Positions 41,825 through 63,626 are shown, counted from the first letter of the stretch. The stretch is DNA of 64,000 bases from Vitreimonas sp. (GCA_035627515.1 DASPLQ010000012.1:391269-455268), one strand, 5' to 3'. Numbers and translations: made by a program. The notes: generated from the sequence alone by a model not told the origin.

Positions 41825-41866
41825 GTTTAGCGGAAAGGTTTGTTGAAAACACAATTTTTTCTATGC

Positions 41867-41883
41867 TGTGCCAATATTAACAA
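41867..41883. repeat. motif M, copy 2 (first 17 nt conserved)
   Basis: CTGTGCCAATATTAACAA is identical to the start of 25581-25611. Confidence 0.55.
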
Positions 41884-41987
41884 TTTTGAAACAATAAAAC
41901 AGACAATAATTGACAGCTTAAGAAAACAAGGCTTAGAGTTTTCATTGTTTTAAAGATGGTCTTCTTGTTGAGCACAGTTTTTCAGGC

Positions 41988-42016
41988 TTGTATGAATATT
42001 GGCAAAAATCATACAA
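41988..42016. repeat. palindromic motif P, copy 2
   Basis: TTGTATGA-atattggcaaaaa-TCATACAA. The arms match copy 1 and the spacer is the reverse complement of the copy-1 spacer. Confidence 0.6.
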
Positions 42017-42068
42017 ACTACACAAAAACCACTTTTTGAAGAAGAAATGATGAATCACAAACAAAAAC

Positions 42069-43409: not shown

Positions 43410-43440
43410 GGTTTAAGTAACTGTGTAATGATATCAAATC

Positions 43441-44583: not shown

Positions 44584-44620
44584 ACTACTATGGTAGCAAA
44601 TTTCAGGCAGGAAAAGAAGT

Positions 44621-45643
44621 TTACAATGGTAAACCGGTGCGGACAGCTGGGGTTAAGACCTCAATCGTGAAACTGTCTTGAGTGGTGTTTTTGGCAGTGC
44701 CGGTAAAATGATAAAACGGATACGCCAAGTTACTCTTACTATCAGTTCTGTACTCCAAACTCACACTGGTCATTTCGCCATCGGCAACATCACGGATATC
44801 GAGTGGCAAAGCGGTGTCATCATAGGCAGCGATGATGGAGCCTTGGTTGCGGTTGGTTAAGTTTTCCAGGGCTTCATTAACGGAAATTAACTCCACATTT
44901 TGATTGGCACGAGTCAGTGAGTAACTAGGTGTGAATGTGGCGCTTTGGACTTGTTGCCGAGCATTGACTATTATTACCACTGGCGGATTAGCTTGATAAT
45001 TAAAGAATACCGGAATGTCCTCAAATACATAACTAAACGGCACCCGGGCCATTTGGGCTTGAGAGGAATCAACTTCTTCACTTTCCACCGCCGCTGCGTA
45101 ATAGGTGATTTGGTTTTCCAGCGCTTTCAGCTCGAGAGCGCTCAAATATTCATCTACGAAGCCCTGGGAAATATCTAAAGCTTCGGTTTTGGTAATAATA
45201 CCGGCGCTGTCGGTGGCGACCACGTCTTGAGTGAGGCTTAACTCACCAGTGTTTACGTCTTTGCTTAAACTATAGCGGTCGCCAACCCACAAACCTTTTG
45301 AACTTGGGTGGGGTTGGAGTTGGAAATCATTCACGATCTCGCTTTCGATCTCTGCGGTGGCAAACGGCGTAGCTGACAATAAGGGCAAAGTTGCCGGCTG
45401 AGTAAATGGCTCACCCACGTACCGAAAACCGGCAAAGTTAGTAGTGCTGCCGTCGGCATTGGCGGTAGTAAACTCAGTCGTGGGAACTTCGGAAATCGGA
45501 GGAGTCAATAACCGTAAGGTCAACGCAATGACGATGCCGACAAGCGCAAACGCCAGCAAATACCATAGCCAACGGCTACTGAACGGGTTCGGTGTAACAG
45601 GTTCGGACGGGATCGTAAAGTTTGACATCTTTATCAGGCACAA
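44621..45643 (-). CDS. bitopic membrane protein (340 aa). It could be the VirB8/TcpC-like component by position and topology.
   Basis: A single N-terminal TM (WLWYLLAFALVGIVIALTL) with the rest extracytoplasmic. No motif-level support. Confidence 0.35.
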   Translation of the reverse strand: MCLIKMSNFTIPSEPVTPNPFSSRWLWYLLAFALVGIVIALTLRLLTPPISEVPTTEFTTANADGSTTNFAGFRYVGEPFTQPATLPLLSATPFATAEIESEIVNDFQLQPHPSSKGLWVGDRYSLSKDVNTGELSLTQDVVATDSAGIITKTEALDISQGFVDEYLSALELKALENQITYYAAAVESEEVDSSQAQMARVPFSYVFEDIPVFFNYQANPPVVIIVNARQQVQSATFTPSYSLTRANQNVELISVNEALENLTNRNQGSIIAAYDDTALPLDIRDVADGEMTSVSLEYRTDSKSNLAYPFYHFTGTAKNTTQDSFTIEVLTPAVRTGLPL

Positions 45644-48600: not shown

Positions 48601-49004
48601 TTTTCTGAAATGGATCCGAGGATTTGACTAGCTAATTGTTGGAGTTGGTGTTGCTTGCCAAACTGGTAGTTATATAAGCGCGAAATAAGGTCCGTGCAGA
48701 AAGCTGCCACGTCAGAGTAATACAGCGTCGTCCGATCAAAATTTGGACTGCGGCGACTGCGATGCGGTCGTTGAGGGAAAACTGAGCGTAACGTGCTGTT
48801 GCTATGGGTGTTGGCAAAGGGAACATTATGAAATTCTTTGTCAACATCTAAGCCAATGTCTTGGCGAAAAGCTTGGTTGAGTTCGGTTAAAAACGGCAGA
48901 ACTTGAGCCAAAGGAATATCGGAAGGAATTCGTTTGAGTTCGTCAAAACGCGTCAAAGTTTGAGCGTCCACGACAATTGGGGCAGGCATGACGGCGTCGA
49001 CCAT
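45576..49004 (-). CDS. giant membrane protein (1142 aa) with a polyglycine-rich TM region and a C-terminal M23 (LytM) metallopeptidase domain. Candidate T4SS-associated cell-wall hydrolase.
   Basis: The C-terminus HSHGKSDSFDIGANRGVPVYTPFAGTV...FGKYVVLDTGSERFVFAHLS...GEVGSTGGSAKVVITGPHLHYEV carries the M23 zinc-ligand motifs HxxxD and HxH. The Gly-rich hydrophobic block is GGGAGNILTNPFGSGAASGGGGGGILGSGGAGAAAGGGGFGVVGASVAGAGIIGV. Confidence 0.7.
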   Translation of the reverse strand: MVDAVMPAPIVVDAQTLTRFDELKRIPSDIPLAQVLPFLTELNQAFRQDIGLDVDKEFHNVPFANTHSNSTLRSVFPQRPHRSRRSPNFDRTTLYYSDVAAFCTDLISRLYNYQFGKQHQLQQLASQILGSISEKELLSLGQDPQSAERFNEAAFLTPVNLGRLSSALQVLATNLPAFVEAEQKLAQPQKEKDADEKLVTEDDLDDDQKPETKTTQEPQTEQKPEEITKNQLAKPLGAAEIAAEIAAGTMAPEEAAKQLARVKTTLQYGLLASMKAQLVNEGFDINTMPMADLESLVSGYVDIHLSRLQETNPADLEKLLTKNNMSGLVRELQHLHTYFNVSDVAIRYQLPQTTQPQTQFTEVTPAVGANIGQEPKSASYLKQKLAEAGLITLDASGNPNDLGKLRSTKARLEALAITGHSDDWIQFLSPKDFQTLFGFEIKPAELDQLRPELTTYYQQLFAEFDPKGEKGLAQFQHIFPAETQDSQQHTQWFHQAAARTQAPAKLLQTHITAEDLVNAYTLPAQKSGQEVPAHLLISYEIRYEIFTELHLNTVEVEQVGGNPGNGFVPHSVMNTIRTLGGGAQTSPGAAGAGEGGPATKGLSAVDKLRQYVMGGKPEGMAANDRLRAATDAVAAKALGTLASAYMTPVGGAAVERIAQKVLNNREKILMGLAAGATGLTTAFLMLMNKSPIIALTTGVGAGVGAFLGSVGGPFGALGGAIGGAGVGYGIGSFIQNGLNSISGAFSSLTGGGGAGNILTNPFGSGAASGGGGGGILGSGGAGAAAGGGGFGVVGASVAGAGIIGVTTFMTAAATVSTTLQPLPTTDSSGELSPYVTIEKRVSPKIKFENAELPATADYSITIKANKGYDLKIRNVVDVMTVKLNTETRGSDPTPTLPTRTTAELVPAERLVDGEIILNSGEEITLNPYSQTFDSAFRDSNVSNKVEILFSAQATPELLERGEENKSGENLNASGAEVICIGECPQNQNGCWPVDGRITQLPFGSHSHGKSDSFDIGANRGVPVYTPFAGTVKINSLGGGFGSFGKYVVLDTGSERFVFAHLSKIDSRLSNDKEIPAGHPIGEVGSTGGSAKVVITGPHLHYEVSNTSGQFYNTSSSRIRNFVPDKDVKLYDPVRTCYTEPVQ

Positions 49005-49060: not shown

Positions 49061-50695
49061 TTATGCAGCGGCTGTATGGGCGTCGGAAGCTTGATAAAGA
49101 TCAACGATCGCATGGTCTTGACCGCTGAGCACTTGGCCTAAACCAACCGATAGTTTTGGTTGTGCGTTGTGTATGTTTTTTTTGTTTGATTGATCAACCT
49201 TTGTTTTAGACAAAGAACCCTTTTTGTCAGAGCTTGCTGAACTGTTCCATTGTTTATTAACCGATGTCCCAGGTACCCAACTACATACATGGCAAGAGGT
49301 ATCACTCAGACCGATCTTTGTGTTGCCACATTGTCGACAGCGTTTGACGGGACACAGCTCGCCGTTCGGCAAGCGTTCAAACAAGCCACTCGAGCCTTTG
49401 CCCATACCATGTTCTACAAAGCCACCAAAGTCAAAGTCGCCGCAGGGGATGACACCCATAATACGTTTGCCAATTGTGGGCAAAGCACCAGATAACGCGC
49501 GGTAGTAAGTATCAGCACTGCCGCCTTTCGTCAAAATATCGTATTTATCAGCTATTTCTTTACCAGGAACCGTCACTTGCCAACCGATGGCATTGCCGAT
49601 GGCGCCAAAGGCTTTTTGCAACCGTTCGGCTCTCCCAAAAGGGGTAGCCAGCAACTCTTTCACAAAAATAGCGAGGATGGCTTGGCGGGCAGTCAATAAA
49701 TCTTGGTTTTGTTTGGCTTGGCGATGGTCGGCTTTAGCGACGCGGGCAAATAACTCAGTATCACCAGCCAGCGCGCCCAACCCAAACAACACATCTCGAG
49801 GATCACTAGCTTTGAGATTATTTTTGCGATCTCGGCTCCAGTCTTCGCCTAAGGTCAGAATGCGCATCATAAACGCCATCTCATTCGTCGGAGAAAAATG
49901 ATCCGTTTGGTCTAAATTTAAAAATGTGTCTACCTGCGTTTGCCAATCTAAAGAATGTAGGTATCCCTTCGTTTCAATCACATAGCGCCAGCCGTCGTGC
50001 GAGTATTTATCTTTGACTGTTGATGGCACTGCAATTACCCGGTAAATATTTAAAAACGAGTCTTTGCCACCGTGAACCTGGTGGGGGGGCATTGCTAAGG
50101 CGTGCCAGTTACCCACCACCCCGGTGGTTTTCTGACCATCTGGCAAAGTCATATCGATGACGGGTAAGTTTTCAGCCAGGCTAGCCAATAGCGGCGGCGC
50201 TAACACTGGATCCGTGGGCAGCACTTCTGCAATGAGTTTTTTGATCTGCTCATACTCCAATCTATATCGCTCGATAGTTGAGTCAGGTGCGCCAATCTTG
50301 ATCGCATTTTCCCAACCGTATTTAGCACGACCAACTACATCTGGGCGCAGTGGATAATCAGGATCTTCCACGGTGAAGCTCCCGGCAGCATCCCAGATCA
50401 CATCATAGTAATCGGTGATCGTAAAAGGATGAACGATAAATTCTTGATGGAACGTCCGCAGTTGTTTTTCCAGTTGGGGACCCAGCGCCACTTTGGCAGC
50501 CTCAACTCCGTGTTTCTTCACCAATGTCTCGAACTCATCAAAGAGATGGGACATGTTGAAGGCTTGCTGAGAGGACTTTTCAGCTGATTTTTGGGATTTG
50601 CTCTCTTTGGAATTTGGAATTTTCCGCGACAAATCAGGCCGTTTCCACAACCACGGTTTAAACCAACGACTCGTTTCTTTGCGTAAAGCTCCCAT
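49061..50695 (-). CDS. hypothetical protein (544 aa; possibly 497 aa from MSHLFDE) with a C-terminal CxxC...CxxC zinc ribbon
   Basis: CPVKRCRQCGNTKIGLSDTSCHVCSW. No other family recognised. It contains a G7 tract at 50083-50089. Confidence 0.45.
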   Translation of the reverse strand: MGALRKETSRWFKPWLWKRPDLSRKIPNSKESKSQKSAEKSSQQAFNMSHLFDEFETLVKKHGVEAAKVALGPQLEKQLRTFHQEFIVHPFTITDYYDVIWDAAGSFTVEDPDYPLRPDVVGRAKYGWENAIKIGAPDSTIERYRLEYEQIKKLIAEVLPTDPVLAPPLLASLAENLPVIDMTLPDGQKTTGVVGNWHALAMPPHQVHGGKDSFLNIYRVIAVPSTVKDKYSHDGWRYVIETKGYLHSLDWQTQVDTFLNLDQTDHFSPTNEMAFMMRILTLGEDWSRDRKNNLKASDPRDVLFGLGALAGDTELFARVAKADHRQAKQNQDLLTARQAILAIFVKELLATPFGRAERLQKAFGAIGNAIGWQVTVPGKEIADKYDILTKGGSADTYYRALSGALPTIGKRIMGVIPCGDFDFGGFVEHGMGKGSSGLFERLPNGELCPVKRCRQCGNTKIGLSDTSCHVCSWVPGTSVNKQWNSSASSDKKGSLSKTKVDQSNKKNIHNAQPKLSVGLGQVLSGQDHAIVDLYQASDAHTAAA

Positions 50696-50723: not shown

Positions 50724-50845
50724 AAAATAAAAAAGGTCCGATGCTCGCGGTACTCCCAGCGCTAGTGTGTGAACACGAGACAGGCTGGGCCTCCTTGAAG
50801 ATCGGACTTACTGGTAGGTGGCACTCACTCAACACGAGCCCATTT
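50724..50845 (-). ncRNA. candidate structured leader or small RNA ending in an intrinsic terminator. It has a weak resemblance to the SRP RNA apical region.
   Basis: The minus-strand RNA is GGGCUCGUGUUGAGUGAGUGCCACCUACCAGUAAGUCCGAUCUUCAAGGAGGCCCAGCC...GCUGGGAGUACCGCGAGCAUCGGACCUUUUUUAUUUU. Nested complementary segments are GUCCGAU/AUCGGAC and CCCAGC/GCUGGG. The T-run ends about 25 nt before the ATG at 50695. Confidence 0.3.
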
Positions 50846-50925
50846 TTTCTACCAGATCACCGTTGCGGCACAGTTCCGGGTTTTCACCGGATTCCACAAG
50901 TAGGATTTGTCGGATACACTCATAG

Positions 50926-53900
50926 TTGTATCACTATAGTAGTAATAACACACCCTTGCGTAAAAGGCCAGTGGATCACTACAATGGATTTATTATGGCT
51001 GAAACTGCATTAATGATTACTGGTCAAGTTGTTGAAAATAAAGATAAAAAACGCTTTGAAATACCTAAATGGAGTGATCTTTTACAAAGAAAGGGAATTC
51101 TGGGTTCAGTAGCACGGTTAACAGAAAAAGTCAGAACTTTCTTTTCTCGAGAACGCAAAGACAAAGAACTGCCCAAAGCTACTCCCACAACTGAAGCTCG
51201 AGCAAAGTTAAATAATGCTGGCTACTGGGCAATTTTGGTAGAAGCACAAAAAGCTCGTAATGAAGACAAACCTGTCACTAAAGACCTTCCTATTTTAGAT
51301 GGTCAAAATCCAAATCCTGATTTAGTGGCCGCTCATATCATTCAACAAATTTGTGAGGCAGCTTATAAAGGTAATAATATAAATTTCGAAGACACCTTTG
51401 CGGCACAAACAATTAAAGAGTATTTAACAGCCAATAATAAAACAATCTACGAATATTTAGCTGAAAATGGTTATCCAATTACTAAGCTTGCGGATACTAT
51501 TGCGGCTTTGGCTAGCGAAGCAGCTGGAAATGAAGTTCCGGAAAACCAACAAGAAACTACAACCCCTGCTCCGGAGGTAATTGATGCTAATGTGGCTGCC
51601 GAGCGCGAAAAGTTTAAAGCTAAAATCTTTAATAACACACCTACACCAACTTCATATTGGAACTTGTTCAAGCGAGCCCACAACACACATCTCATAGGCA
51701 AAATTGACTGGGTTTATACCCCAGCTATTAACACAGACAACCCCGACATGGCTGATGTAGCAGCACGGTTAATTTTAGCTAAGTTAACAAACAATGATGC
51801 TCTGAAGAAGACTGCTTATGATGAATTAGCAAACTATTTGAAATTTACCGTTAACAAAGATAAAACAGTTCAAGAAAGAGCTCAAATCACCATTTCTGAT
51901 ACTGACATCGACGCCTTTATCGAACAAGGTGGTTATAAAGATGAGCTTATTAACCAAATCGTCGAGCAAGTTAAAAAAGAGGCTGAGGTTAAATCTGAAC
52001 AAATTCGCTTCAAGATTGAAAACTCTTCACATTGGCCAAAAATTCAAGCCAATATTGATACCAACAAACCACTCAATGAGGGTTTGGCTATGGATGCAGA
52101 TCCTACTGCGACGTCACTCGATGACGCAGTCGTGATGGCCATGAGTTACATCGAGGGTAGTAATCCCAGTTATGGCACGATCAAAGAGGGGTTGAAGTTG
52201 CATGACATGGATGATGAAGCGACATTGCGTCGTCTAGCAGCGGAGTGGAAGAAAGAGCGTCAAGAAAAATACATCAAAGCCAGATTAGAAGTTGCTCGCG
52301 CTCGGTTAAGTGACTTGGGTTACTGGAAATTAATTGATCAACGCAGAGCTTTTAAGACTCCAAGTGAGGAACAAAAGAATTCCGACGAATACAAAGCATA
52401 TGCCAAAGAACTTCAGGATTTGAAAACAGCGTTCGCAGAAAAGAAAGCCACTCCTGAGCAAGTCTTAATTTTAGTCTTGTTAGGCGAAGTCCCCTATCGC
52501 AAACGCGAAGTGAAACAAGCCTTGGATGCCGCTGATTATCCTGAGGATGTCATCATCTTGTTGGGTAAAGAAGCTGGAGTGACGATTGATCGCCAACCTC
52601 TGTGGAAAGCCGCCATTAATGGTACTTCAGTTGAAGACTTAGCTGATAAATATGGTATGGATCCTGAGGAAGTAAGAAGGCATTTACGGAGTAAGGTACC
52701 TGCTAACGGTTTGTTGATGTTTGGTGGCAGTTTGGCCTTCAGAGCTGGTTTGACTGGAGCGGCTGGTCTTAATCCTTTGGTGTCTGGAGCTGCCGCTGGA
52801 ATAGCAGTTGATGCTTATCGCGTTGCAGCTGGTGGAGCAGATGTTTTCTTCGATAATGCAGCTCAAAATACCAGTGCAGCTTTATTTGGTGGTAAGGATG
52901 AATCGTTAACTGAGCGCATTCGTAATGAGCGCCGATCGGGCATTGGTGGTGCAGCGATGTGGGCACTACGCAAGCTTGGTATTTTATTCAACGCCCCAGG
53001 TAGTGCTTTGACTCAGGTGGTAATTGGTGTAACACGCCACCGAGCTGAAGCTTCAAACTTAATAGATAAGATGGGCATTTCAGTTGATCAACAAACAAAA
53101 GATATTGACTCAATTCAATTAGAAACCATTGTTAAAGAAGCCATTAATAGCGGCAATTTCCGTCAGGTGCAAAAGCTGGCTAATGAACTTGCTACTTTGG
53201 CCCGCTATCAATATGGAGCATCAGACGTTTATGGTGAGACAGGCAGTCGGCCGAACAAAGAAGCTAATGGTCTTTTAGATCGGTTTAGACATTATGTGAA
53301 CCCTGAGCATGGTGCAGAGCAATTAGCCCAGCTTCATGAAAAATTAGTTGCCACAGTGGACAAACTTCTGGATGAAAGTCCCAAAATTCAGACGATGCGC
53401 GAACATCGAGCAGCCAACACACTGACTGCAGAAGATATGCCACGCTTGGCTTTAGAAAATGAGTGGAAACGCACTAAAGATCGTGCCAAGACTATAGGTG
53501 TGTTAGCCTTGGGAACCGCAGTTGTCTTCAGAACAGTCACCAACGTAGCTAGTGGAATGGCATTTGTAGAAGCTGGTAAAGTTGCAGTAGATTTAGGTCG
53601 TGATGTGGTTCGAGGTATTGGCTATGTGGCAGAGCGAGGCATTGATGCTTTGCGAGGTCGTAATGAAGCTGAAGCCTTCAATCCCGCTTTAGATGGTATG
53701 AGAGTCCAAACCGGTGTTCGCCAAGGCGTGGAAGCAGCTCGTAACCAACCACCAGCCCCTGGTAGTTGGGCCGCTGCGCGTGAAATTTTGAATAATGCTC
53801 GTCCAGGTCGCAGCATAATCGAGGACGCAAACATCAAACCTGATGGCGGCATGTTGTGGACACACTATCAAAATATGGGGCTTCCCGGCCGAGGTGTGAA

Positions 53901-54234
53901 TGTGGCCAATGATGTTACTCAAGCAGTTAACAAAGTTATTAACCCTGACTGGAGTGCAAATGCAATTGGCCCACGTCAAACCTTTGATTTCTTAAACCGT
54001 GTACCATCTTCACAAGAACTGCAAGGTATGTCTGGTCAATTCTTATTGAAGCCTGAACAAGCCCAACGCTTAAGTGAAGCTGTCCAAAACTATAATAACT
54101 ATAGTGGTGAAACCAGGACTTTATTGGAAGGTTTATATAAAGGGACCGTGGACACCGACAACTTAGTTAATAACCCAGATGACTTGCAAAAGTTATTAAG
54201 AATCGCAGTAGAAACCAATGGCGCTCAAGTTTAA
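50926..54234 (+). CDS. giant hypothetical protein (1102 aa; alternative start MAETAL at 50995)
   Basis: An uninterrupted 3.3-kb ORF. It has internal Gly/Ala-rich hydrophobic segments (LLMFGGSLAFRAGLTGAAGLNPLVSGAAAGIAV and IGVLALGTAVVF). No known domain recognised. Confidence 0.5.
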   Translation: MYHYSSNNTPLRKRPVDHYNGFIMAETALMITGQVVENKDKKRFEIPKWSDLLQRKGILGSVARLTEKVRTFFSRERKDKELPKATPTTEARAKLNNAGYWAILVEAQKARNEDKPVTKDLPILDGQNPNPDLVAAHIIQQICEAAYKGNNINFEDTFAAQTIKEYLTANNKTIYEYLAENGYPITKLADTIAALASEAAGNEVPENQQETTTPAPEVIDANVAAEREKFKAKIFNNTPTPTSYWNLFKRAHNTHLIGKIDWVYTPAINTDNPDMADVAARLILAKLTNNDALKKTAYDELANYLKFTVNKDKTVQERAQITISDTDIDAFIEQGGYKDELINQIVEQVKKEAEVKSEQIRFKIENSSHWPKIQANIDTNKPLNEGLAMDADPTATSLDDAVVMAMSYIEGSNPSYGTIKEGLKLHDMDDEATLRRLAAEWKKERQEKYIKARLEVARARLSDLGYWKLIDQRRAFKTPSEEQKNSDEYKAYAKELQDLKTAFAEKKATPEQVLILVLLGEVPYRKREVKQALDAADYPEDVIILLGKEAGVTIDRQPLWKAAINGTSVEDLADKYGMDPEEVRRHLRSKVPANGLLMFGGSLAFRAGLTGAAGLNPLVSGAAAGIAVDAYRVAAGGADVFFDNAAQNTSAALFGGKDESLTERIRNERRSGIGGAAMWALRKLGILFNAPGSALTQVVIGVTRHRAEASNLIDKMGISVDQQTKDIDSIQLETIVKEAINSGNFRQVQKLANELATLARYQYGASDVYGETGSRPNKEANGLLDRFRHYVNPEHGAEQLAQLHEKLVATVDKLLDESPKIQTMREHRAANTLTAEDMPRLALENEWKRTKDRAKTIGVLALGTAVVFRTVTNVASGMAFVEAGKVAVDLGRDVVRGIGYVAERGIDALRGRNEAEAFNPALDGMRVQTGVRQGVEAARNQPPAPGSWAAAREILNNARPGRSIIEDANIKPDGGMLWTHYQNMGLPGRGVNVANDVTQAVNKVINPDWSANAIGPRQTFDFLNRVPSSQELQGMSGQFLLKPEQAQRLSEAVQNYNNYSGETRTLLEGLYKGTVDTDNLVNNPDDLQKLLRIAVETNGAQV

Positions 54235-54245
54235 GGAGTTAATAC

Positions 54246-54683
54246 ATGTCTACACCTGTCTCTGATCAGTTACTCAAAGTGAATATTAAAACTATTTATG
54301 GTCCAGATCTCAGCAATGAAGGTTTCGAAGTCAATCTGGAAAACATGACAGAAATTAACTTCATGGATTTCCTCGATGAAGAAACTGATGCTCTCAATGA
54401 AGAGCAAATGCAAACTTTGTCAGATCTGTTCTCTCGTGAAGATGCCAAACCTGAGGATTTAGCGCGCATTTTTCGTCTCGCCATCCCAGATTTAGATAAC
54501 AAGTTCAAAACCAAGATGCTTGCTGTCAAAGAAGAACTCATTCGGGCTCGTATCGAGCAACTGGCCGACGAGCTCAAAGAGCCAGAGTTTGCTACCAAAA
54601 TTACAGCCGCTCGCCAGGCTGCAGATGTAGGTCAGTGGTCACAAGTTGAGCAAATTATTGCTGAGTTGAATCAAGAGTTGTAG
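54246..54683 (+). CDS. small acidic protein (145 aa)
   Basis: Starts 12 nt after the giant ORF. Highly acidic and helical (EETDALNEEQMQTLSDLF...). Shaped like a chaperone or immunity protein, but unsupported. Confidence 0.45.
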   Translation: MSTPVSDQLLKVNIKTIYGPDLSNEGFEVNLENMTEINFMDFLDEETDALNEEQMQTLSDLFSREDAKPEDLARIFRLAIPDLDNKFKTKMLAVKEELIRARIEQLADELKEPEFATKITAARQAADVGQWSQVEQIIAELNQEL

Positions 54684-54746
54684 GTTTTCTTACCAACAAA
54701 AAATTCAAAGTTAATCTCAAAAGAATAGTTTTCAAACCTGTCAGTT

Positions 54747-56201
54747 CTAAGCTGCAGCTGGTTGAGGCTGAAGGGGTTGTTGCTGCTGCTGAGCCAACTC
54801 TGCTTGTTGTGCAGCTACATCACGTTGCTGACGAGTTAACTCTTGTTGCTGATGGCGACGTTTTTCTTCTTCATCCATGTAGCGGTCATACCCTAAGAAC
54901 CATTCGCGATTACGGGGTCCATATCCACCATGCATACCATTCATATATGACATGCCTCGAGGATCGCCTTTGAAAGCTAGGTACTGGTAGTAAACTTGTT
55001 CGCCAGTATGAGAAATTTCTACTAGGCTACTTAACAAAGATTGTTGACCCGACATCTTAGCAATCATCGAATCACTCATTAAAAAGAGGAGAGCCATACA
55101 ACCAAATAAGGTGGCTTTACCTTTGAGAATATTACCATCTTGGTCACGAAGACCTAAGAAGTTTAAAACATCAAAGCCAGTTTCTTGATCAGTTTCCACT
55201 TTTAAATCAGGCTGCTTGTTTAACTCCACCGCCATTTGTTCACCTTTTTTAGTCGGATCAAAATCTTCGATGCCTAGGGCCTTTGCTTGCTCCATCAGGC
55301 GAGCTACTGCTTGAGAGTCTTCAGGATTAGTTTTTTCTGCTAATTCCTGTAACCACAGCTTGCCTTGCATCTGAGCTTCTTGTTTGGTTTTGTCTGAAAT
55401 AGCAGGGTCACTAAATGTCTCGACTGCAAATGAGACACCTTTTCTGCGTGAATCCATGAAAGCCTCGAGCTTAATGGTTTCAAGTTCTTGTTGGTAGGCA
55501 GCAAAGGCTTCTGGGTTTTGGGTTTTAAGTTGAGCCACTTGTTCAGGAGGTAATAAATTGGGAGCATCGTGATATTGAGCATGATATTCACGAACCGCTT
55601 TTTGAATATTTTCCGTACCCATGTTAGCAACGTTAGTTTGGAACGCTTCGATAGCGCCTTTTTGTTTGACACGATCTTGATAGATTTCATCAACTACAGC
55701 TTTCACAACGTCATTATTGGGGAATTTTTCAGCAATGGCACCCAAATTTCCGTCCTGATCGGCATAGGCAATGATGGTTTTGCGGAGATCATCAGGACCA
55801 GCATTTGCGACTACTTTTTCTCCTAACCGAGTCATTAAATTTTGTTGTTTATCTTGTTTGTCGAGGAACTCAGCATATTGATCAGCTCGCTCTTTGCCAG
55901 ACTTAGGATCAACGATTTGCCCCTGTGTTTCTTGCAAAGGAGCTGGTGTTTGAAGGGCGGCATCAATAGCTTTGTCGATATTGGGATTGGCACTGGGTTC
56001 GGTGGCACGATCCGCACTGGGCTGAGGAGGGCGCAGCAGAGAACGATGGTCAGCCAGGGGAATTGCTCCTACTGTTTTCAAAATGGGGACTTCTGCAGCT
56101 TTATTTTCTTGAGGTTTAAGAGGTAGAGTGCCGATAGGACTTAAGCCATCGGGCTGGCTATTAGGGTTCATTGTAGATATTTGGGGATTTTCAGTAATCA
56201 T
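54747..56201 (-). CDS. hypothetical protein (484 aa) with a Gln-rich C-terminal tail
   Basis: Long ORF with a possible TM (LFGCMALLFLMSDSMIA). The tail is RRHQQQELTRQQRDVAAQQAELAQQQQQPLQPQPAAA. Confidence 0.45.
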   Translation of the reverse strand: MITENPQISTMNPNSQPDGLSPIGTLPLKPQENKAAEVPILKTVGAIPLADHRSLLRPPQPSADRATEPSANPNIDKAIDAALQTPAPLQETQGQIVDPKSGKERADQYAEFLDKQDKQQNLMTRLGEKVVANAGPDDLRKTIIAYADQDGNLGAIAEKFPNNDVVKAVVDEIYQDRVKQKGAIEAFQTNVANMGTENIQKAVREYHAQYHDAPNLLPPEQVAQLKTQNPEAFAAYQQELETIKLEAFMDSRRKGVSFAVETFSDPAISDKTKQEAQMQGKLWLQELAEKTNPEDSQAVARLMEQAKALGIEDFDPTKKGEQMAVELNKQPDLKVETDQETGFDVLNFLGLRDQDGNILKGKATLFGCMALLFLMSDSMIAKMSGQQSLLSSLVEISHTGEQVYYQYLAFKGDPRGMSYMNGMHGGYGPRNREWFLGYDRYMDEEEKRRHQQQELTRQQRDVAAQQAELAQQQQQPLQPQPAAA

Positions 56202-56230
56202 TATAGTGTCACTCTACACTACTTCTCGAC

Positions 56231-59200
56231 GTGATTTCAAGGGAAAAATGGTATAATATGGTCACTGTGTCAAAAGGCCATGAACAAGAACAAGTTAATA
56301 TCAGCGAAATCTCGCAAAGGCAGCGTGATGTAATTGATATTTCTAAGTACTTAGATACAGCTCCTCAATCTCAAGTTAAACCCGTCATGGCAACACTTCG
56401 TGAAGTCATGAAAGGCGATGGGATTTCGTATGCTGAAAAGTTGAGATTAATGGTTCGAGAACTATCTGGAGTGTTAAAAAGAACTGATGCTAAGAAGCGT
56501 GAAGCCTTGCTTAAAATTGAAAATGATATTTTACATGAGCTAGGCACCATTGCTTTTGACATTGATCTTGAGGATGATCAAGATAAACAACTGGTGTTAC
56601 TTCAACAATACGCGGAGTACGTTTACGTGATGGAAGAAGTAATTGTTCCTGCCTTAAAGCAAGAAACAGCTGTTGATAATGCCTTATTGGCTCAGAAAAA
56701 AACCGGTGAGACAGACCTTTTAACAACAGTAGCTGAGAATCCACCAGAGGCTACTGATGACCCTGCGATATGGAATGCAGCTATTACTCAAGTCACCGAA
56801 AGAATTACTAAATTCCATGAGACCTTGCAAAAGGTATTAAATGCCCCCGATAGAAGAGTTGCTTTGGAAGAGCATTCAGATGCCTTGATTGAGTTACAGT
56901 ATGAAGCACAGAACGCCATTAGTTTTATTTTGTTGTCTAATGTCATCCAATCTACTCCAGACAGAGATAAACAAATAAATAATTTAAACAAGGCCTTTGA
57001 GGGGTTAAAACAAAGCTTTGAAAAGTTAAGAAGTGAAAGAGTCACTGCTGAACAAGCAGTTACTGGTCGAGACAAATCAAGTGTGGAAGACTGGGAAAAA
57101 AATCCAGAATTACATCCTGATGCGGCTAAAAATGTAAGACGAGCAATTGTTGCTGCTCAACCTAATCTTGAAAGCTTAGTAACTAAAAAACCTCAGGCAA
57201 AATGGTCCCCCAAACAGTTTGATGAACGAATCGATCTAATTGATCAAGTTGAGGCCCAGCTTCAGAGACCAGCTCAAAGATTGTTGGTTACCATTGAAGC
57301 ATATCAAACGGCTCCAGAGCCCCACCCTGATAAAAAGGCCAGCAACACTGAAAAAGCTAATTTCTTACAATGGCATTATTATGATAATCCCGCCTCTGGA
57401 GAAAAAGGTAAACCCAAATTTGAAGAAATGGGTGTAGGAGTAATTCTTAAGTTTTTGAGTGAAATGCGTCAATACACGTGGGAAATGAAAGCTGAAAAAC
57501 GTTTCCCTGAATTAATGAAAGATATTAGTCGATTTGTAGATCGTGAAAAAGAGCCGAAGCCACCTAAGAATGTGGCTGAAGTAGGTGGTTATTATCTTCA
57601 GTTACAAAAAGATATCACTGACCTGAGACAACTTTTAGATGCAGCTATTACTGTAGTTCAAGAAGACGATAAAATCCAACCTGAAGAAAAAGAGTTCTTA
57701 TTGAAAAACCTTTTTGAAAAATATGATCAAGAGCTTAATCGTCGGATTGAAAAAATTTATGCCTTTTGGACGGGAAAAACCGGCGAAGAGTTTAATATTG
57801 AAATCTTGTATCCTGAACTTACTGAGCTAAGAAAAAACGCTAAAAAATGGAAGAGTGAACATGGTCATGAAAGTAAAAATGCTAAGTTATTGGCTGATCT
57901 GATCCCCCGAGCAAGGCATGCCGTCCTCGCTAATCCCACGTATACTTACCCTGGTGATGACGGTCGTTATGGAGCTTTCTTAGATGAGCGCTATTTTGGG
58001 CCAGCAACCGAAGCGTATAAACATATTCACGAAAATATACACCATCCTCATGGTTATGAAAAATTAATTATCGATTTCTTTGAACAGCAGTCTGGCAAAC
58101 ACCATCATCCTGAACTAATAAACGAAGGCTGGCGTGATGCTGCGCCCGAAGTGTTAGCTGATGCTTTGTGGCAATATATTCGTGTGTTTTTGTTTGATAT
58201 TGTGGCCAGTCGGGCTCAAAACAACTTTTTTCCGGTCAAGATTCATCACTTTGAAGTCCCCTTGCATGACCATGATCATAGTCATATGTCGCAAGTCATT
58301 GGTTCTCTGGGCGCATTAGGATCATATTTTAAGTTGCATGGTGAAGCAGAAAAAGGACAAAAGTTGATTGAGGCTGAAGGTCGGATGTTCTTGGACTGTA
58401 GTCAAATTGAGTTTGTGATGAATTTTGGTCATGATCTCTTTAGCAAATCTAAAGACATGGAAGGCATTAAAAAGTTACTGGGTAGTAATGCCTATGATAA
58501 AGATGATTTAGAGCGGATGTTTATTATTGGGAGAGACTTTGAAACCGGAGTCTACACAGGAACCAGAATAGGTAGAGCTTGGCAAGCAGTTTATGCCATG
58601 AATGAACCAGTTATTCATGAAATTGCGTTAAGATCTGGGGAACTTAAGAACGTAGGAGATCCTACAACTCACTTGCGTTTTGTACGAAATGTTAAAGAAA
58701 AGAATGCATTAGCCTTTTTCCCATGGGAAGATGTTAATAAAAATCCTGAAAAAACTCAGTTAGCATATGTAAAAAGCGTTTTAATTCAAATTATTGCCGG
58801 TTCTGAAGAAGAACCCCCTTGGATGATTAGCAAGAACTATGAAGAAAGAATGAAGTTTTCGCAAAATTATTTGCAATGGCGATTGTTTGGTGACTATGAT
58901 TCCAGTAAACCTCTAAATGAACAAGGCAAAGACATAAGAGGAATTATGGATGGCAGTGTCCCTCGAGGTGGAGATCAGAAAAAGCCACACGAACGAAGTT
59001 TGTGGGCGCGTTTTCTAGCAGCCGGCGGTAAAGTGGGCACAAAAACTACAGATAGAAATATTTCACTAGGAGATGGGGCACCGTCTGAATTTTTAACGGC
59101 TGAAGAAGACACATTAAGAGACAAAGGTTTCTTAGCCCAGAAAGTGGCTACTAACTTCTATTACATTAGTATGGATCATGCTCGAGCTTCTGGGGGTGGC

Positions 59201-60571
59201 ATGGTCAAAGGTGAGAAAGCCGATGAGTATGTTAGAGCTATCAGTGCTGCTCGCGGCATAAATGGGCGTAACTATGAAGCACGCAAAGATTCTAAAGGAT
59301 ATCTAGAAGTTAAAGTTGGTAATAACTGGTATAAAGTCCATGATACTTCTATGGGAACACTTGGAGAAAATATGGGTGATCGGCCTGCCAACGCCGGGAC
59401 CTATCGTTCCAAGCTCAAGAGTGGCACCGGAGCTGATGGTGCAATTGGTCCTTTTATCAGTATTGATTATTTCTACGAAACCCTACCTTCTGCCACCGCT
59501 ACATATGCATCGATGACGGCAGAAAAATCTTACTTTGGTAAAACATTAGCACAAGAGTTATTCTTAGCTAACGATGGCCAATTTGATAAGATTCCGTTCC
59601 AAAATTATATTGCTGGAGAAGATAGAGCGGTCCGTTATAAAGATACTGGCAGTCTAGGTGTAGAAATGTACGAAAAGATTGTCGGTGGACTTGGTATCAA
59701 CTGGGCCTCAATTGCAACCGCAATGAAAGGGGCTGCTACTTCGCCGATCTTTAACTTTAGAGAGTTAGAAAAAGTGCAAAAGCTTTCTCGAAATGTTTAT
59801 TATTTACTCACACGAGATTATGGTGGTGAGCTGCACAAATGGCCTACTAAAGAGCAATATTGGCGCTATCGTATTATTGAACAATATTGGCAAAATAATG
59901 ATCGCGACTTTGCTAAGATTCCTGTCGGAGCAAAAGTCACTTCCGCTCCAGGGGGATTACCAGCCCGTTATAACGGTTTAGTAGTGGAGGTAACAGATGA
60001 AGACCGCAAAACCATCCTCAAAGCCAATCGCCGATATGATAAGACGTATGAGCTATTCGACGCTCGACCCACAAAAGATGAATCAGAGATGTCTCCTGAT
60101 GAAGTAAATGATTTCGATGACAGTGATGGCGGTTATTCTCGATATATTTCTAATGTTCACAACGCCTATCGAATTGCGAAGTTTTTGCCTGATGAAGCAC
60201 CTAAAAATGAATTCGAGAGAACAGTGATACGCAATGAGACAGATGGCTACATGATGCGCAAAAAATTGATTTTAGGACTATTACTTATCAATGACATTTC
60301 AGTTTCATCATTAACAGGTATTAGCTGGGATGACATTGTGGTAATTGTTGAGTTCTTAAGTAATGAATATTGGCAAGCACGGAATGCCAATGAATTTAAT
60401 ACTTTTATTGGAGATCTCTTCGGTAGACCGAAACGAATTTACAACGGTTTGGGACTCTTTTCTCGCGAAGAAGCTTTTGCGCTGTTGCGTAGCGCGGGTG
60501 TTGATACTAGTGTTCTCTCACGCATTACTGCGATGTCAGAACGCTTATCCCGTGTGCCGGGTGTGAAGTAA
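56231..60571 (+). CDS. giant hypothetical protein (1446 aa), with no signal peptide or domain recognised
   Basis: An uninterrupted 4.3-kb ORF, preceded by TGGTATAAT. It has repeated E(Q)YWQ(N/A) motifs and a His-rich stretch, HHPHGYEKLIIDFFEQQSGKHHHPE. Confidence 0.5.
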   Translation: MISREKWYNMVTVSKGHEQEQVNISEISQRQRDVIDISKYLDTAPQSQVKPVMATLREVMKGDGISYAEKLRLMVRELSGVLKRTDAKKREALLKIENDILHELGTIAFDIDLEDDQDKQLVLLQQYAEYVYVMEEVIVPALKQETAVDNALLAQKKTGETDLLTTVAENPPEATDDPAIWNAAITQVTERITKFHETLQKVLNAPDRRVALEEHSDALIELQYEAQNAISFILLSNVIQSTPDRDKQINNLNKAFEGLKQSFEKLRSERVTAEQAVTGRDKSSVEDWEKNPELHPDAAKNVRRAIVAAQPNLESLVTKKPQAKWSPKQFDERIDLIDQVEAQLQRPAQRLLVTIEAYQTAPEPHPDKKASNTEKANFLQWHYYDNPASGEKGKPKFEEMGVGVILKFLSEMRQYTWEMKAEKRFPELMKDISRFVDREKEPKPPKNVAEVGGYYLQLQKDITDLRQLLDAAITVVQEDDKIQPEEKEFLLKNLFEKYDQELNRRIEKIYAFWTGKTGEEFNIEILYPELTELRKNAKKWKSEHGHESKNAKLLADLIPRARHAVLANPTYTYPGDDGRYGAFLDERYFGPATEAYKHIHENIHHPHGYEKLIIDFFEQQSGKHHHPELINEGWRDAAPEVLADALWQYIRVFLFDIVASRAQNNFFPVKIHHFEVPLHDHDHSHMSQVIGSLGALGSYFKLHGEAEKGQKLIEAEGRMFLDCSQIEFVMNFGHDLFSKSKDMEGIKKLLGSNAYDKDDLERMFIIGRDFETGVYTGTRIGRAWQAVYAMNEPVIHEIALRSGELKNVGDPTTHLRFVRNVKEKNALAFFPWEDVNKNPEKTQLAYVKSVLIQIIAGSEEEPPWMISKNYEERMKFSQNYLQWRLFGDYDSSKPLNEQGKDIRGIMDGSVPRGGDQKKPHERSLWARFLAAGGKVGTKTTDRNISLGDGAPSEFLTAEEDTLRDKGFLAQKVATNFYYISMDHARASGGGMVKGEKADEYVRAISAARGINGRNYEARKDSKGYLEVKVGNNWYKVHDTSMGTLGENMGDRPANAGTYRSKLKSGTGADGAIGPFISIDYFYETLPSATATYASMTAEKSYFGKTLAQELFLANDGQFDKIPFQNYIAGEDRAVRYKDTGSLGVEMYEKIVGGLGINWASIATAMKGAATSPIFNFRELEKVQKLSRNVYYLLTRDYGGELHKWPTKEQYWRYRIIEQYWQNNDRDFAKIPVGAKVTSAPGGLPARYNGLVVEVTDEDRKTILKANRRYDKTYELFDARPTKDESEMSPDEVNDFDDSDGGYSRYISNVHNAYRIAKFLPDEAPKNEFERTVIRNETDGYMMRKKLILGLLLINDISVSSLTGISWDDIVVIVEFLSNEYWQARNANEFNTFIGDLFGRPKRIYNGLGLFSREEAFALLRSAGVDTSVLSRITAMSERLSRVPGVK

Positions 60572-60724: not shown

Positions 60725-62503
60725 TTAAGCATCAGGGAAATTTTTAGGAGTGCTTTCGTCAGATCTTGGAACATGTCCATGGTTATCTGGTGTATCTCCC
60801 ACAGTTTCTTGACCCGGTGTAGTTGGGCCTGTGGAATCTCCGGGCTCAGTACCCACCGCAGTTGTCCCAGGGCGACGACGAGCGCCATTACCCCAATTAC
60901 GAATGTTGTTAAGTGTTTGAGAAGCTGTAGCACCAATGTCACCGGTATCTTTTCCAAATGCATCTGCAAAGGCTGCCCAGTTACGAACAAAGTTTCCAGT
61001 ATTATTGACCACACGAGCTCCTCTTCTAACTATAGGTATAGCTAATGGTAACGCAGCCCCAACTGCAGCACCAGTGCCAGCATAGCTGAAATTACTGCTC
61101 CGAGGCACGGCATCTTCACCTTGTGCTCGTCTTCTACGTTGAGCTAATAGATATCCTGCCCCTGCACCAAGAGCAGCTCCACCCACACCAAGAGCGGCAC
61201 CGCCGACCATGGCGGTAGCAATACCACGTCTATCTGCTACCTTCTTATACGCAGCTCCCATCAACTCTCCAAACACGCCACCATCGCCAGCGCCTAAAGC
61301 CTTCTTCACTTTATCAACTACCTCTGGTAAAGCTAAGACTAAACCTAAACCGATCAAGACTGTGAGGGCGTCACCAGTGCCAGAACCGAACAAGTATGGT
61401 GGTAAGAAGCCAGTGCCTTCAGCGCCAATGGAGTCGCCGGTGCGGGCATCGATTAAGTGGGAGTAAACGATCAAAACCATCAAGACAGCGGGGAAGACAG
61501 CTAAGTTACCAACTAACGATTTGATCCAACCAGTAAAAGTACTGCCTCGACCAGGAATGGCCGTGGTCATGAGTAATAATGGTGACAAGGTAATAGTCAT
61601 GATGATGGTGATATACGTTTTGAGCAGTGAGAAGAAGAGTTTCATCATCGAGAAAATGATGACGACTAAAATGATGATTAAAAGAGTGATTTCTGATAAC
61701 CAACTGACAGCATTGGAAACCACACCACCAAAACCATTGAGGCTACCATCAATAAAGTCGCCAATGGCATCGACACTGGAGAGCGTGCCGTGGGTGAGAA
61801 TATATATGGTCAACTGGACGATGTTTTTATCAATTAAGTTAGTTTCTTGGCCAAAAACGCCGACGAGTAAGAACATGACTACATACATTAAGTCGATCAA
61901 TAAGCCTGCAATAGCATACGAAAAAGTGACAGCAAATAAAGCTAAAATGACGTTAGGGATGGCTTGCTGAGCAGTGACAGCGCTGGAGCCCATTTTTTGA
62001 CGGAACATAATCAAGAAACCGATAGCTAACATCACTAAAATTAAGAACAAATAGGCGAGGTTGCGGAATAATTTCCAGGCTTGAAGCACAGGTGATAGTG
62101 AGGCAAAACCTAAACCTTGGGCATAAGCTTGAGGAACGATATGCGCGGAGTTGAGGACATCAGCGACGTAGGTAGCGGTATCAGCCGGTGGGTTTTCATA
62201 CATGGCGACGACAGCACGGTTAATCCCGCCGATTGCGCCACCGCCATAAGCGACGCCAATTGAGTTACTTTTACACTCAGGACTAGCCATAGTGCCGCCG
62301 AGCAAACAAACCGTGGTACCGAGAAAACTGGTTTCGAGGAGATAACTGCCCGTGTGAGCTAGGTTGGCACGGACTTCGTTGTTGGCAAGGTCATTGCCTT
62401 CGTTGGTTTCTCTAATGATGTCATTAGCAGTGTTAGCATAAGCTGGCACAACCACTAATAACACTAAGACTAAACCGGCGAGCAGCTTTTTGAGCATATG
62501 CAC
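60725..62503 (-). CDS. VirB6/TrbL-like polytopic membrane protein (592 aa) with a signal peptide, at least six TM helices and a Gly/Ala-rich C-terminal tail
   Basis: MHMLKKLLAGLVLVLLVVVPAYA is a signal peptide. An extracytoplasmic domain of about 130 aa is followed by TM clusters (LAYLFLILVMLAIGFLIMF, LALFAVTFSYAIAGLLIDLMYVVMFLLVGVFG, LLIIILVVIIFSMMKLFFSLLKTYITIIMTITLSPLLLMTTAI, LAVFPAVLMVLIVY). The assignment rests on topology only. Confidence 0.45.
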   Translation of the reverse strand: MHMLKKLLAGLVLVLLVVVPAYANTANDIIRETNEGNDLANNEVRANLAHTGSYLLETSFLGTTVCLLGGTMASPECKSNSIGVAYGGGAIGGINRAVVAMYENPPADTATYVADVLNSAHIVPQAYAQGLGFASLSPVLQAWKLFRNLAYLFLILVMLAIGFLIMFRQKMGSSAVTAQQAIPNVILALFAVTFSYAIAGLLIDLMYVVMFLLVGVFGQETNLIDKNIVQLTIYILTHGTLSSVDAIGDFIDGSLNGFGGVVSNAVSWLSEITLLIIILVVIIFSMMKLFFSLLKTYITIIMTITLSPLLLMTTAIPGRGSTFTGWIKSLVGNLAVFPAVLMVLIVYSHLIDARTGDSIGAEGTGFLPPYLFGSGTGDALTVLIGLGLVLALPEVVDKVKKALGAGDGGVFGELMGAAYKKVADRRGIATAMVGGAALGVGGAALGAGAGYLLAQRRRRAQGEDAVPRSSNFSYAGTGAAVGAALPLAIPIVRRGARVVNNTGNFVRNWAAFADAFGKDTGDIGATASQTLNNIRNWGNGARRRPGTTAVGTEPGDSTGPTTPGQETVGDTPDNHGHVPRSDESTPKNFPDA

Positions 62504-62582: not shown

Positions 62583-63626
62583 TTGTTGACTCTTGCGGAA
62601 ACAGCCACCTTTTTGGTATACATTTGGGTAATGATAACCAGTGAACAACAGCAACAATTGAAAGATTTATTAGCCGCCGCTCACCAAGTGACAGTCGTGA
62701 TTGGCGCTGAGCCCACGTACGATCAGGTAGCAACAGGCTTGGCTTTGAGTCAAGCTTTAGTGCAGGCAGGTAAGGAAGTCTTGACTGTGGCGCCCCGAGC
62801 TTTGGGTGAGAGTTTTGAAACCTTGACTGGTTTGGAGTTGGTGCGTCACGAACTCGGTCACCAGAATTTGAGTATTAGTTTTGCCTATCAAGAAACAGCA
62901 GTGGATAAAGTTAGTTACCATATCGATGATCAAAACCAGCGGTTTTATTTGGTAATCAAACCTCAACAGGGAGCTCAACCGTTGGATGCCAATTCAGTTG
63001 AGTTTTCGTATACCGGTGCGGGGGCTGATTTGGTGTTTTTGGTGGGCATTCATGCCTTGGAATCATTGGAACAACTTTATTTTGGCTATGAGGATTTTTA
63101 TCAAACCACGACCGTGGTGACTTTCCATACCTTTGATGCTGCGATTGGTAATATTAAACTGAACGTGGGTGAGAAGAGTAGTTTGAGTGAGGGGATGTGG
63201 GAGTTGTTGCAGGGAGTGGAGTTGCCTATCGATGGTAACATGGCCACTAATTTATTGGCGGGGATTGAAGAGGCAACTGATGGTTTTAGGTCATTGGCGG
63301 TGACTGCTGAGACATTTGAGAGTGTGTCACAGTTGATGAGAATGGGGGCGCGCCGCGTGCGGCGCGCACAAAAAGAAGCCAGTCCTGTGTATGGCAATGG
63401 GATGAGTAAAGGAGCATCAGCAGTCAGTCCTAAATTCATTCAAGCCTTTAGCAAAAAAGCTCAGTCCGCTCCAGCGGATGCAGAAAACAGTGACTTGCCC
63501 ACTGCGGCTGATGGTCTCGAGGGGGAAGTCTCGGTGAGTAAGCCTCCTAAGCGAGGCAAAAAAACTCCTCAGCCTGGTGATTTAGATTACCAACCAGGTG
63601 TTTTTGGACCTGGTGGGAGCGGTTAG
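62583..63626 (+). CDS. hypothetical protein with a degenerate DHH-phosphoesterase-like N-terminal region
   Basis: VTVVIGAEPTYDQVATGLALSQALVQAGKEV parallels the NrnA-type ITIxxHxNPDGDAxGSxLAL motif, but the catalytic Asp/His residues are replaced. GADLVFLVGIHAL sits at the DHH position. Low confidence. Confidence 0.35.
   Translation: MLTLAETATFLVYIWVMITSEQQQQLKDLLAAAHQVTVVIGAEPTYDQVATGLALSQALVQAGKEVLTVAPRALGESFETLTGLELVRHELGHQNLSISFAYQETAVDKVSYHIDDQNQRFYLVIKPQQGAQPLDANSVEFSYTGAGADLVFLVGIHALESLEQLYFGYEDFYQTTTVVTFHTFDAAIGNIKLNVGEKSSLSEGMWELLQGVELPIDGNMATNLLAGIEEATDGFRSLAVTAETFESVSQLMRMGARRVRRAQKEASPVYGNGMSKGASAVSPKFIQAFSKKAQSAPADAENSDLPTAADGLEGEVSVSKPPKRGKKTPQPGDLDYQPGVFGPGGSG

Follow-up and report, generated by a model that had tools for sequence, protein, structure and literature searches.

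Secretion systems of type IV (T4SS) are conserved across the Patescibacteria and, in the single species that was tested, were essential to epibiotic growth; the accessible parts of the literature term their role "completely unknown" and identify no substrate (PMC11665869, PMC10633639, PMC12102498). The 64,000-nucleotide stretch analyzed here (the window; GCA_035627515.1 DASPLQ010000012.1:391269-455268, deposited as Vitreimonas sp.) is that of a Patescibacterium (Candidate Phyla Radiation, CPR), Microgenomatia-like, with a monoderm-type T4SS adjoining dnaA. Between the T4SS core and a polytopic membrane protein gene, E592, lies an island (50926-60571) with two giant open reading frames (ORFs), of 1102 and 1446 amino acids (aa), that contain no recognizable domain. 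Here, we show that the 1446-aa protein, D1446, occupies a slot whose occupant has been repeatedly replaced by unrelated sequence while the flanking genes stayed conserved. Quite possibly, the island holds two different things, this slot gene and a separate module made up of the 1102-aa protein, A1102, and its small acidic neighbor, B145.

The origin-proximal, relaxase-less, monoderm-type layout of the T4SS matches published Patescibacterial loci as far as their accessible descriptions go (PMC12102498, PMC10633639). One of them, SEML1_0006-0019 of Southlakia epibionticum, adjoins dnaA and encodes VirB4, TrsD-like and PrgI-like proteins, wall hydrolases and a pilin array; the window shares with it the dnaA adjacency, the VirB4, TrsD-like and PrgI-like genes, hydrolases, uncharacterized proteins of about 1000 aa and the lack of a relaxase (PMC10633639). 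It differs in that its large proteins are encoded on one strand, and SEML1_0011 and SEML1_0013 were matched by structure to a T4SS protein or TrbL/VirB6 and by KEGG to a permease (PMC10633639). A soluble, convergent and hypervariable slot is not described in the accessible part of that account, the comparison being one of descriptions and not of sequences (PMC10633639). Likewise, the accessible literature on CPR T4SS gene sets and pilin arrays makes no mention of such a slot.

Effectors encoded within T4SS loci, such as the X-Tfe proteins of Xanthomonas and, in Helicobacter, CagA with CagF, are likewise large, signal-less, T4SS-adjacent and lineage-variable. Compared with X-Tfe and CagA, however, neither an XVIPCD, a BID or a charged C-terminal signal nor a catalytic domain was found in the slot proteins, no coupling protein was seen at the locus, and the T4SS belongs to a monoderm-type epibiont and has no known substrate. 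Unlike X-Tfe, D1446 has no adjacent immunity gene. Extended VirB6 proteins, like F-type TraG, carry a large, variable and hydrophilic domain that contacts the recipient, fused to a polytopic domain of the VirB6-like kind. The VirB6 paralogues of Rickettsiales are an example of extended VirB6, according to the accessible part of the source (PMC12857230). The present locus resembles them in having a giant, variable, hydrophilic polypeptide tied to a VirB6-like component, but D1446 is encoded by a separate gene on the opposite strand and lacks a polytopic domain, and E592 resembles TrbL/VirB6 only weakly.

Variable hot spots also occur in integrative and conjugative elements, SXT/R391 for example. 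Polymorphic toxin loci, in turn, combine a constant N-terminus with swapped C-termini. The slot is similar to both in its fixed insertion point between conserved transfer genes, in the non-homologous replacement of its occupant and in the pairs of proteins (seven) that are alike in the N-terminus only. It is dissimilar in that the occupant is one giant ORF of similar kind, and in that no toxin domain or immunity gene was recognized. The gene order is not that of a polymorphic toxin locus either, as D1446 is followed by the convergent E592 with no small gene, and A1102 shows the reverse pattern of a variable N-terminus and a conserved C-terminus. None of the systems compared here, the small acidic chaperones discussed below included, is a family match for the slot proteins or for B145.

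The slot convergent to E592

D1446 (56231-60571, plus strand; 1434 aa in the public call P0001) is a giant acidic protein encoded between E592 and the VirB4 run and convergent to E592. The latter (592 aa; 60725-62503, minus strand), the conserved anchor of the slot, encodes a membrane protein of polytopic type that has a signal peptide and some six to seven hydrophobic transmembrane (TM) segments. Its homologues (n = 581) are, where named, from Woesebacteria, Pacebacteria or the "Patescibacteria group", and were syntenic with T4SS genes in 80 loci. The label "VirB6-like", given to this gene in a first-pass annotation made from the sequence alone, is plausible by topology and context more than by sequence: E592 had no match to Pfam PF04610 (VirB6/TrbL) at the gathering score and none among PDB sequences, and a sub-threshold TrbL/VirB6 match was obtained for 1 of 35 family members (E 0.003). 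Divergent from E592 is a partner gene, F347 (62583-63626, plus strand), conserved in 58 of the 80 loci. The window ends 374 nt past F347, and no ORF runs on there in either reading of the minus strand.

A pattern scan for the E592 family in species-representative genomes gave 211 confirmed loci, 80 of which were fetched together with 10 kb of sequence to either side, as far as the contig reached; four closer metagenomic relatives (L082-L085) were added to these. ORFs were taken stop-to-stop. Occupancy was counted in those loci, 59 in number, that had 5.5 kb or more of downstream sequence. In 55 of them, a convergent ORF of at least 600 aa directly followed the E592 homologue, with a median length of 1091 aa and a range of 630-1830. 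The four exceptions had a small intervening gene (one), split ORFs (two) or a degraded remnant (one). In this last locus (L038, 11368-14966) the giant ORF is replaced by just 289 aa resembling slot family c1, and the slot gene appears to be degraded in that lineage.

The slot proteins form at least ten BLAST clusters. Comparison by hhalign, run on small alignments and without secondary structure, linked none of them except c1 with c3 (probability 96.8%) and the type found in L082 with c1 (99.2%). Any similarity between slot proteins was retained in just 7 of the 20 locus pairs with E592 identity of at least 70%, and the divergence is thus greater than distance alone would explain. When five syntenic pairs were compared gene by gene (L010/L026, L020/L050, L046/L058, L005/L010 and L039/L055), the flanks, that is, the counterparts of F347, E592 and the H1142/I340/J380 run of the T4SS core (F, E and H/I/J), were 46-80% identical while the slot ORFs gave no match. 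Homologous slot proteins are the most diverged gene of their neighborhood, with 64% identity in the pair L014/L015, against 91% for E and 81% for F, and 44% in L082/L084, against 62% and 60% for E and F. In seven slot pairs the similarity was confined to the N-terminal 60-150 residues, a pattern that points to mosaic replacement.

An N-terminal hydrophobic segment was found in 0 of 64 slot proteins, and 55 of the 64 had no hydrophobic segment anywhere; their median isoelectric point (pI) was 5.5. Signal peptides, wall anchors and lipoboxes were likewise found in none of the 64, and Pfam recognized no domain in the representatives of eight slot clusters or in the L082 slot protein. Profiles of slot families c0 and c1 and of the D1446 family gave no match among PDB sequences, those of c0 and c1 returning only helical-bundle noise. 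The statement of the first-pass annotation that nothing indicates a signal peptide on the 1446-aa protein was borne out, since no N-terminal hydrophobic segment was found in D1446. Its only detectable relatives in these loci (L055, E 1.7e-28; L001, E 1.8e-25; and L066) all lie in the same slot, and a word-indexed protein search, even with the four-member family profile, returned only D1446 itself. It has no domain in Pfam, NCBIfam, PHROGs or PADLOC, no match among PDB sequences and, by tblastn, none in plasmids. On reading the sequence, neither a Walker A motif (GxxxxGK[ST]) in D1446 nor an LPXTG motif in its C-terminal part was seen.

Two His-rich stretches (HIHENIHHPHG...GKHHHPE and HHFEVPLHDHDHSH) were noted at residues ~575-690 of D1446 (window positions 57950-58300). 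Both are located within or beside segments where some family members have gaps; the His residues show no conservation there, and L001 and L055 lack the first stretch. The region may be a metal-binding insert.

At 9.8 kb, the variable island between E592 and the riboswitch described below is larger here than in any relative seen, where it spans 2.7-7.7 kb; the islands hold 0-3 extra genes. A search around it for mobile-element boundaries, mobile-element genes and repeats like those of diversity-generating retroelements gave short chance-level repeats only.

Possible roles of the slot proteins

We tentatively propose that the D1446-type slot proteins are host-interaction proteins exported by the T4SS. 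T4SS export is favored because the slot is kept beside a channel-like membrane component, because its products carry no Sec signal and would be cytoplasmic, and because they are replaced wholesale while the machine remains constant. A slot protein would be made in the cytoplasm of the producer, exported via the T4SS, and would serve as an effector or target-cell contact factor that acts on or inside the host bacterium. Its turnover could be driven by host specificity or by an arms race. The first-pass annotation had argued from large, fast-evolving, domain-less proteins next to secretion machinery to effectors or adhesins. For D1446 this agrees in kind with a positionally conserved, hypervariable slot that lacks Sec signals, from which we infer export; for A1102 the T4SS link is not supported. 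A bolder version, in which the slot giants would be the substrates long sought for the Patescibacterial T4SS, host-specific effectors or contact factors that are delivered to the host bacterium and swapped as cassettes when lineages change or chase hosts, and the secretion operon is gated by a cobalamin riboswitch that would tune it to a host-derived cofactor, seems unlikely.

Several results weigh against export. Neither D1446 nor the two largest other slot families showed an enzymatic or toxin domain, a fold or a PDB relative, and the structure model of D1446 residues 560-1446, computed from the single sequence, was mostly helical and unusable, with a predicted local distance difference test score (pLDDT) of 33. 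The net charge of the C-terminus did not differ between slot proteins and neighboring proteins (p = 0.12-0.24); a charged C-terminal secretion signal was therefore dropped for want of enrichment. The translocation signals XVIPCD, BID and E-block were not recognized by Pfam, a weak test for a monoderm T4SS. A VirD4/TcpA coupling protein had no Pfam match among the scanned ORFs of at least 150 aa at 29.8-63.6 kb. CPR coupling-protein genes are reported to lie far from virB4, in the accessible part of the source (PMC12102498). In addition, the failure of hhalign on small alignments is no proof of non-homology, and some pairs of slot families may be extremely divergent descendants of one ancestor. 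Variable hot spots in conjugation-derived clusters may also hold cargo unrelated to secretion.

The slot proteins, D1446 included, could instead have diverged rapidly from a single ancestral component and be cytoplasmic accessory parts of the T4SS, such as a substrate receptor or scaffold that replaces the coupling protein. A machine part would account for the position beside the VirB6-like gene in 55 of 59 loci, for proteins without a Sec signal and mostly without hydrophobic segments, for the missing coupling-protein match among the scanned ORFs, and for the profile links between c1 and c3 (96.8%) and between the L082 type and c1 (99.2%). It would, however, be expected to keep its contacts, yet similarity in the slot is undetectable where E, F, H, I and J are 45-80% identical. 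Together with the length spread of 630-1830 aa, the lack of a visible Walker A motif in D1446 and the L038 lineage that holds only a degraded remnant, this makes a machine part improbable. We also consider it doubtful that the island is a recombination or insertion hot spot derived from a conjugative element, with D1446, C484, A1102/B145 and G544 as arbitrary cargo. Such a hot spot would fit the occurrence of A1102/B145 elsewhere among housekeeping genes and its absence from 84 related T4SS loci, the variation of the island between 2.7 and 9.8 kb with 0-3 extra genes, and the orphan status of C484 and G544. It does not explain why 55 of 59 loci, from lineages that share only 30-50% identity in their E proteins, hold one giant, convergent, acidic and signal-less ORF, and there were no defense-system, phage or plasmid matches, flanking repeats or mobile-element genes.

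The hypervariability of the slot is typical of receptor-binding proteins, and six divergent T4SS_pilin genes are arrayed in the same locus of relatives. The slot proteins might accordingly be Sec-independent surface adhesins or pilus-tip proteins, analogous to PrgB or VirB5, that bind the host surface and turn over as the pilin arrays do. Patescibacterial T4SS loci have yielded no PrgB-type adhesin, according to the accessible part of the source (PMC12102498), which adds to this idea. Still, it appears very unlikely: signal peptide, wall anchor and lipobox were found in 0 of 64 slot proteins, Pfam detected no Ig-like, glucan-binding or beta-rich repeat domains, and the low-confidence D1446 model is mostly helical. 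Export would still proceed via the T4SS, so that this explanation overlaps with the host-interaction role proposed above. A surface filament or adhesin that depends on Sec is disfavored because the slot proteins lack Sec signals, and a PrgB-like Sec-dependent adhesin was rejected, as signal peptide and anchor were not found.

The A1102/B145 module and the orphans of the island

A1102 (50926-54234, plus strand) is a TTG-start ORF of 1102 aa; the public call P0122 begins at ATG 50995, the probable start, and gives 1079 aa. B145 (54246-54683, plus strand) is a small acidic protein of 145 aa (pI 4.28, Asp+Glu 21.4%) and starts 12 nt after the A1102 stop. The ORFs listed in the first-pass annotation are all present. 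ORFs of 1100-1450 codons in DNA of 40-46% GC cannot arise by chance, and A1102, B145 and D1446 each have intact relatives. The first-pass arrangement of two giants flanking the 145-aa protein has to be corrected, since C484, encoded on the opposite strand, separates B145 from D1446. A1102, B145, C484 and D1446 are indeed domain-less, with no significant match in Pfam, NCBIfam, PHROGs, PADLOC or PDB sequences. The claim that no family assignment exists is accurate for these curated libraries, but A1102/B145 and D1446 belong to small uncurated families. The remote-homology check that the first-pass annotation had advised for toxin, adhesin or pilus folds gave no match with profiles against PDB or, for A1102, with Foldseek. 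BLAST detected neither mutual similarity between A1102 and D1446 nor internal repeats, and the idea that they are paralogues or repeat carriers was dropped.

When 1.84 billion representative proteins were searched exhaustively with HMMER, just 11 hits were returned; among them were only ten relatives of A1102 (E 1e-13 to 5e-4), all matching residues 581-871. The 11-sequence alignment revealed a common plan. An N-terminal region that is unrelated between members, and often repetitive and acidic, is followed by a conserved Gly/Ala-rich core (residues ~607-811) with the motifs TGSESxxExxKN, LLRKVG..NAxRS..QV..GVTRDRS and YGDxDVYGxEGS, then by a hydrophobic stretch (residues 857-875 of A1102), a variable linker that is Pro/Thr/Glu-rich in several members, and a conserved C-terminal domain of ~130 aa. 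Thus, "fast-evolving" does not apply to the whole of A1102, which combines its variable N-terminal half with a conserved, membrane-associated core and a hydrophobic segment that probably spans the membrane. In one member (L081, 2-3340), three ~60-aa modules (FLSNLRAGILP...DLDG.PDL...) separated by Pro/Thr/Glu-rich linkers come after the hydrophobic segment and ahead of the conserved C-terminal domain, which supports a probable extracytoplasmic location of that part in the family.

The pairing with B145, suggested on the grounds of size and charge, has been strengthened. A small acidic B145 homologue (145-153 aa) is the next gene after the A1102 homologue in five of five other contigs (L081 and L086-L089), which represent four distinct loci, as L087 and L088 carry an identical A1102-family protein. 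B145 matched the 153-aa gene of L081 by BLASTP (E 1e-11) and the downstream genes of L081 and L086-L089 by phmmer (E 6e-11 to 3e-16). In three loci the pair has tsaD, sua5/tsaE and yidC as neighbors (with groESL beyond in one), and Band_7 also occurs among the neighbors; in another, a B12-dependent ribonucleotide reductase gene lies just upstream. Profile hidden Markov models of the A1102 core and C-terminal domain found no member in the 80 T4SS loci, and none occurs in L082-L085, the closer relatives, where the order is E, big ORF, G-slot gene and H; in L082 and L084, nothing resembling A1102, B145 or C484 lies in between. The link of A1102 to the T4SS, as proposed from the window, is thus not supported: its relatives are found among housekeeping genes, with none in 84 related T4SS loci. 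Since these relatives lie outside T4SS loci, the position of A1102/B145 within one is not conserved. Kinship of A1102, B145, C484 or G544 with genes at equivalent positions elsewhere was rejected (hhalign probability at most 2%), and tblastn of A1102 against phages gave no match.

Judged from gene order and alignment, A1102/B145 is a rare, separate and conserved two-gene module, presumably coupled in function, that in this locus looks like an insertion into the island and is unlikely to be T4SS cargo. A1102 would be a membrane-anchored envelope protein with its variable N-terminal region in the cytoplasm, its conserved core close to the membrane, one membrane-spanning segment, and the conserved C-terminal domain across the membrane; B145 would be its cytoplasmic acidic partner, a chaperone or regulator. 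Two points count against this picture. The topology is inferred from hydrophobicity and the Pro/Thr/Glu-rich linkers of homologues only, and the AlphaFold2 model of A1102 (11-sequence alignment) was all-alpha with a pLDDT of 49.5, rising above about 60 only at residues 440-500, 670-800 and 970-1070. Foldseek gave no PDB match with E below 1 for A1102, and searches of PDB sequences with the A1102-family profile A4, with profile A2 and with single proteins returned helical-bundle noise only.

Small acidic chaperones or adaptors of secretion substrates are well known, including the class I chaperones of type III secretion systems, VirE1, IcmS/IcmW and CagF. B145 is similar to them in its size of ~145 aa, its pI of 4.3, its place directly after a large partner and the conservation of that pairing, and it therefore has the traits of a chaperone, with client binding as a prediction. 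It is dissimilar in that no sequence match to them exists, that A1102 is probably membrane-anchored and that the pair is usually far from recognizable secretion genes.

The two remaining genes of the island, C484 and G544, are lineage-specific orphans. C484 (484 aa; 54747-56201, minus strand), divergent from D1446, has a P/Q-rich N-terminus, a Gln-rich C-terminal tail and one hydrophobic segment (363-381); it had no relative in 89 loci, no hhalign match to positional neighbors and no family-library match. G544 (49061-50695, minus strand) is a basic protein with a C-terminal Cys cluster (CPVKRCRQCGN...SCHVCSW), encoded by the first gene after the riboswitch and ahead of the M23 hydrolase gene. 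No relatives were found in the fetched loci, its positional counterparts included, and there was no significant family match. These counterparts in the G slot are 219-727 aa long from the first Met, lack Pfam matches and contain a hydrophobic segment in 2 of 18 cases.

The cobalamin riboswitch and the surrounding locus

The 300-bp intergenic region between the divergent A1102 and G544 contains an adenosylcobalamin (AdoCbl)-type cobalamin riboswitch aptamer (50788-50913, minus strand), as indicated by Rfam and covariation. The window copy scored 38.7 bits (E 8e-6) against Rfam AdoCbl (RF01482), below the gathering score of 50; at the equivalent place, L082 (16328-16406), L084 (16381-16459) and L057 (15512-15589) have matches to AdoCbl-II (RF01689) above the gathering score. 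The window aptamer has its core in common with them and carries an inserted hairpin of 47 nt, which explains its low score. A covariance model built from these four copies (R1) found 21 copies, namely that of the window (66.8 bits) and those of 20 related loci, all on the strand of the E and H genes. Over the 21 copies, 95.7% of cells were paired and compensatory changes occurred at 10 of 18 pairs; 0 of 500 shuffles scored as high, and slid controls reached 35-52%. In the window and in 17 of the 20 relatives, the aptamer is upstream of the variable gene located just ahead of the T4SS core, the downstream context in L071, L075 and L054 being unconfirmed. A long hairpin and then a U-run lie between the window aptamer and the G544 start, and the same-strand run that follows comprises G544, the M23 hydrolase and the VirB3-like, TrsD-like and VirB4 genes. 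No cobalamin riboswitch is mentioned for a Patescibacterial T4SS locus in the accessible literature, and a full-text query for "cobalamin riboswitch" with "Patescibacteria" returned no paper.

The T4SS core named in the first-pass annotation is real by Pfam and NCBIfam. It runs on the minus strand at 39475-49004 and, continuing leftward from G544, consists of H1142 (45576-49004; 1142 aa, with TM segments and, at the C-terminus, an M23 peptidase domain), I340 (single TM), J380 (PrgI/VirB3-like domain), K446 (TrsD-like) and the VirB4/TraG P-loop gene L677 (39475-41508), followed by dnaA, dnaN and, further on, yidC. The gene order of the core is identical in relatives. Neither a relaxase nor an integrase was seen at this chromosomal, origin-adjacent locus.

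In L082 (2343-5421), L084 (2228-5323) and L085 (2387-5209), six tandem divergent T4SS_pilin (PF18895) genes lie downstream of a gene for an extracytoplasmic function (ECF) sigma factor, and are followed by a protein of ~1157 aa with a single N-terminal hydrophobic segment, whose counterpart in L001 ends in a C-terminal SLT_3 lysozyme-like domain. This protein was rejected as the true VirB6 on account of both features. Elsewhere in the window, envelope-related genes encode a 1005-aa DUF4012 protein (30649-33666, minus strand) and a LysM-domain protein (957-1778, minus strand), and at 1.8-6 kb as well as 15.7-18.6 kb there are several ORFs (200-430 aa) without a Pfam match. Genes for 5S rRNA, 23S rRNA and tRNA-Ala are located at 11478-14972 (minus strand); 16S rRNA was not detected within the 64-kb window and the rRNA operon therefore seems to be split. 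The organism label "Vitreimonas sp.", an alphaproteobacterium, is almost certainly wrong for the source contig, because its gene content and all named homologues are Patescibacterial. Many related records of metagenome-assembled genomes are labeled "uncultured Pseudomonadales" and look mislabeled likewise.

For the biology of these organisms, the riboswitch points to a regulatory input into the secretion operon that can be tested, its sense and the read-through to H1142 and VirB4 being putative. A1102/B145 would add a small, uncurated two-gene family of envelope proteins. The slot itself, fixed beside a channel-like protein and filled by giant, signal-less occupants with non-homologous turnover, for these reasons provides a concrete short list of candidate T4SS cargo or host-specificity factors.

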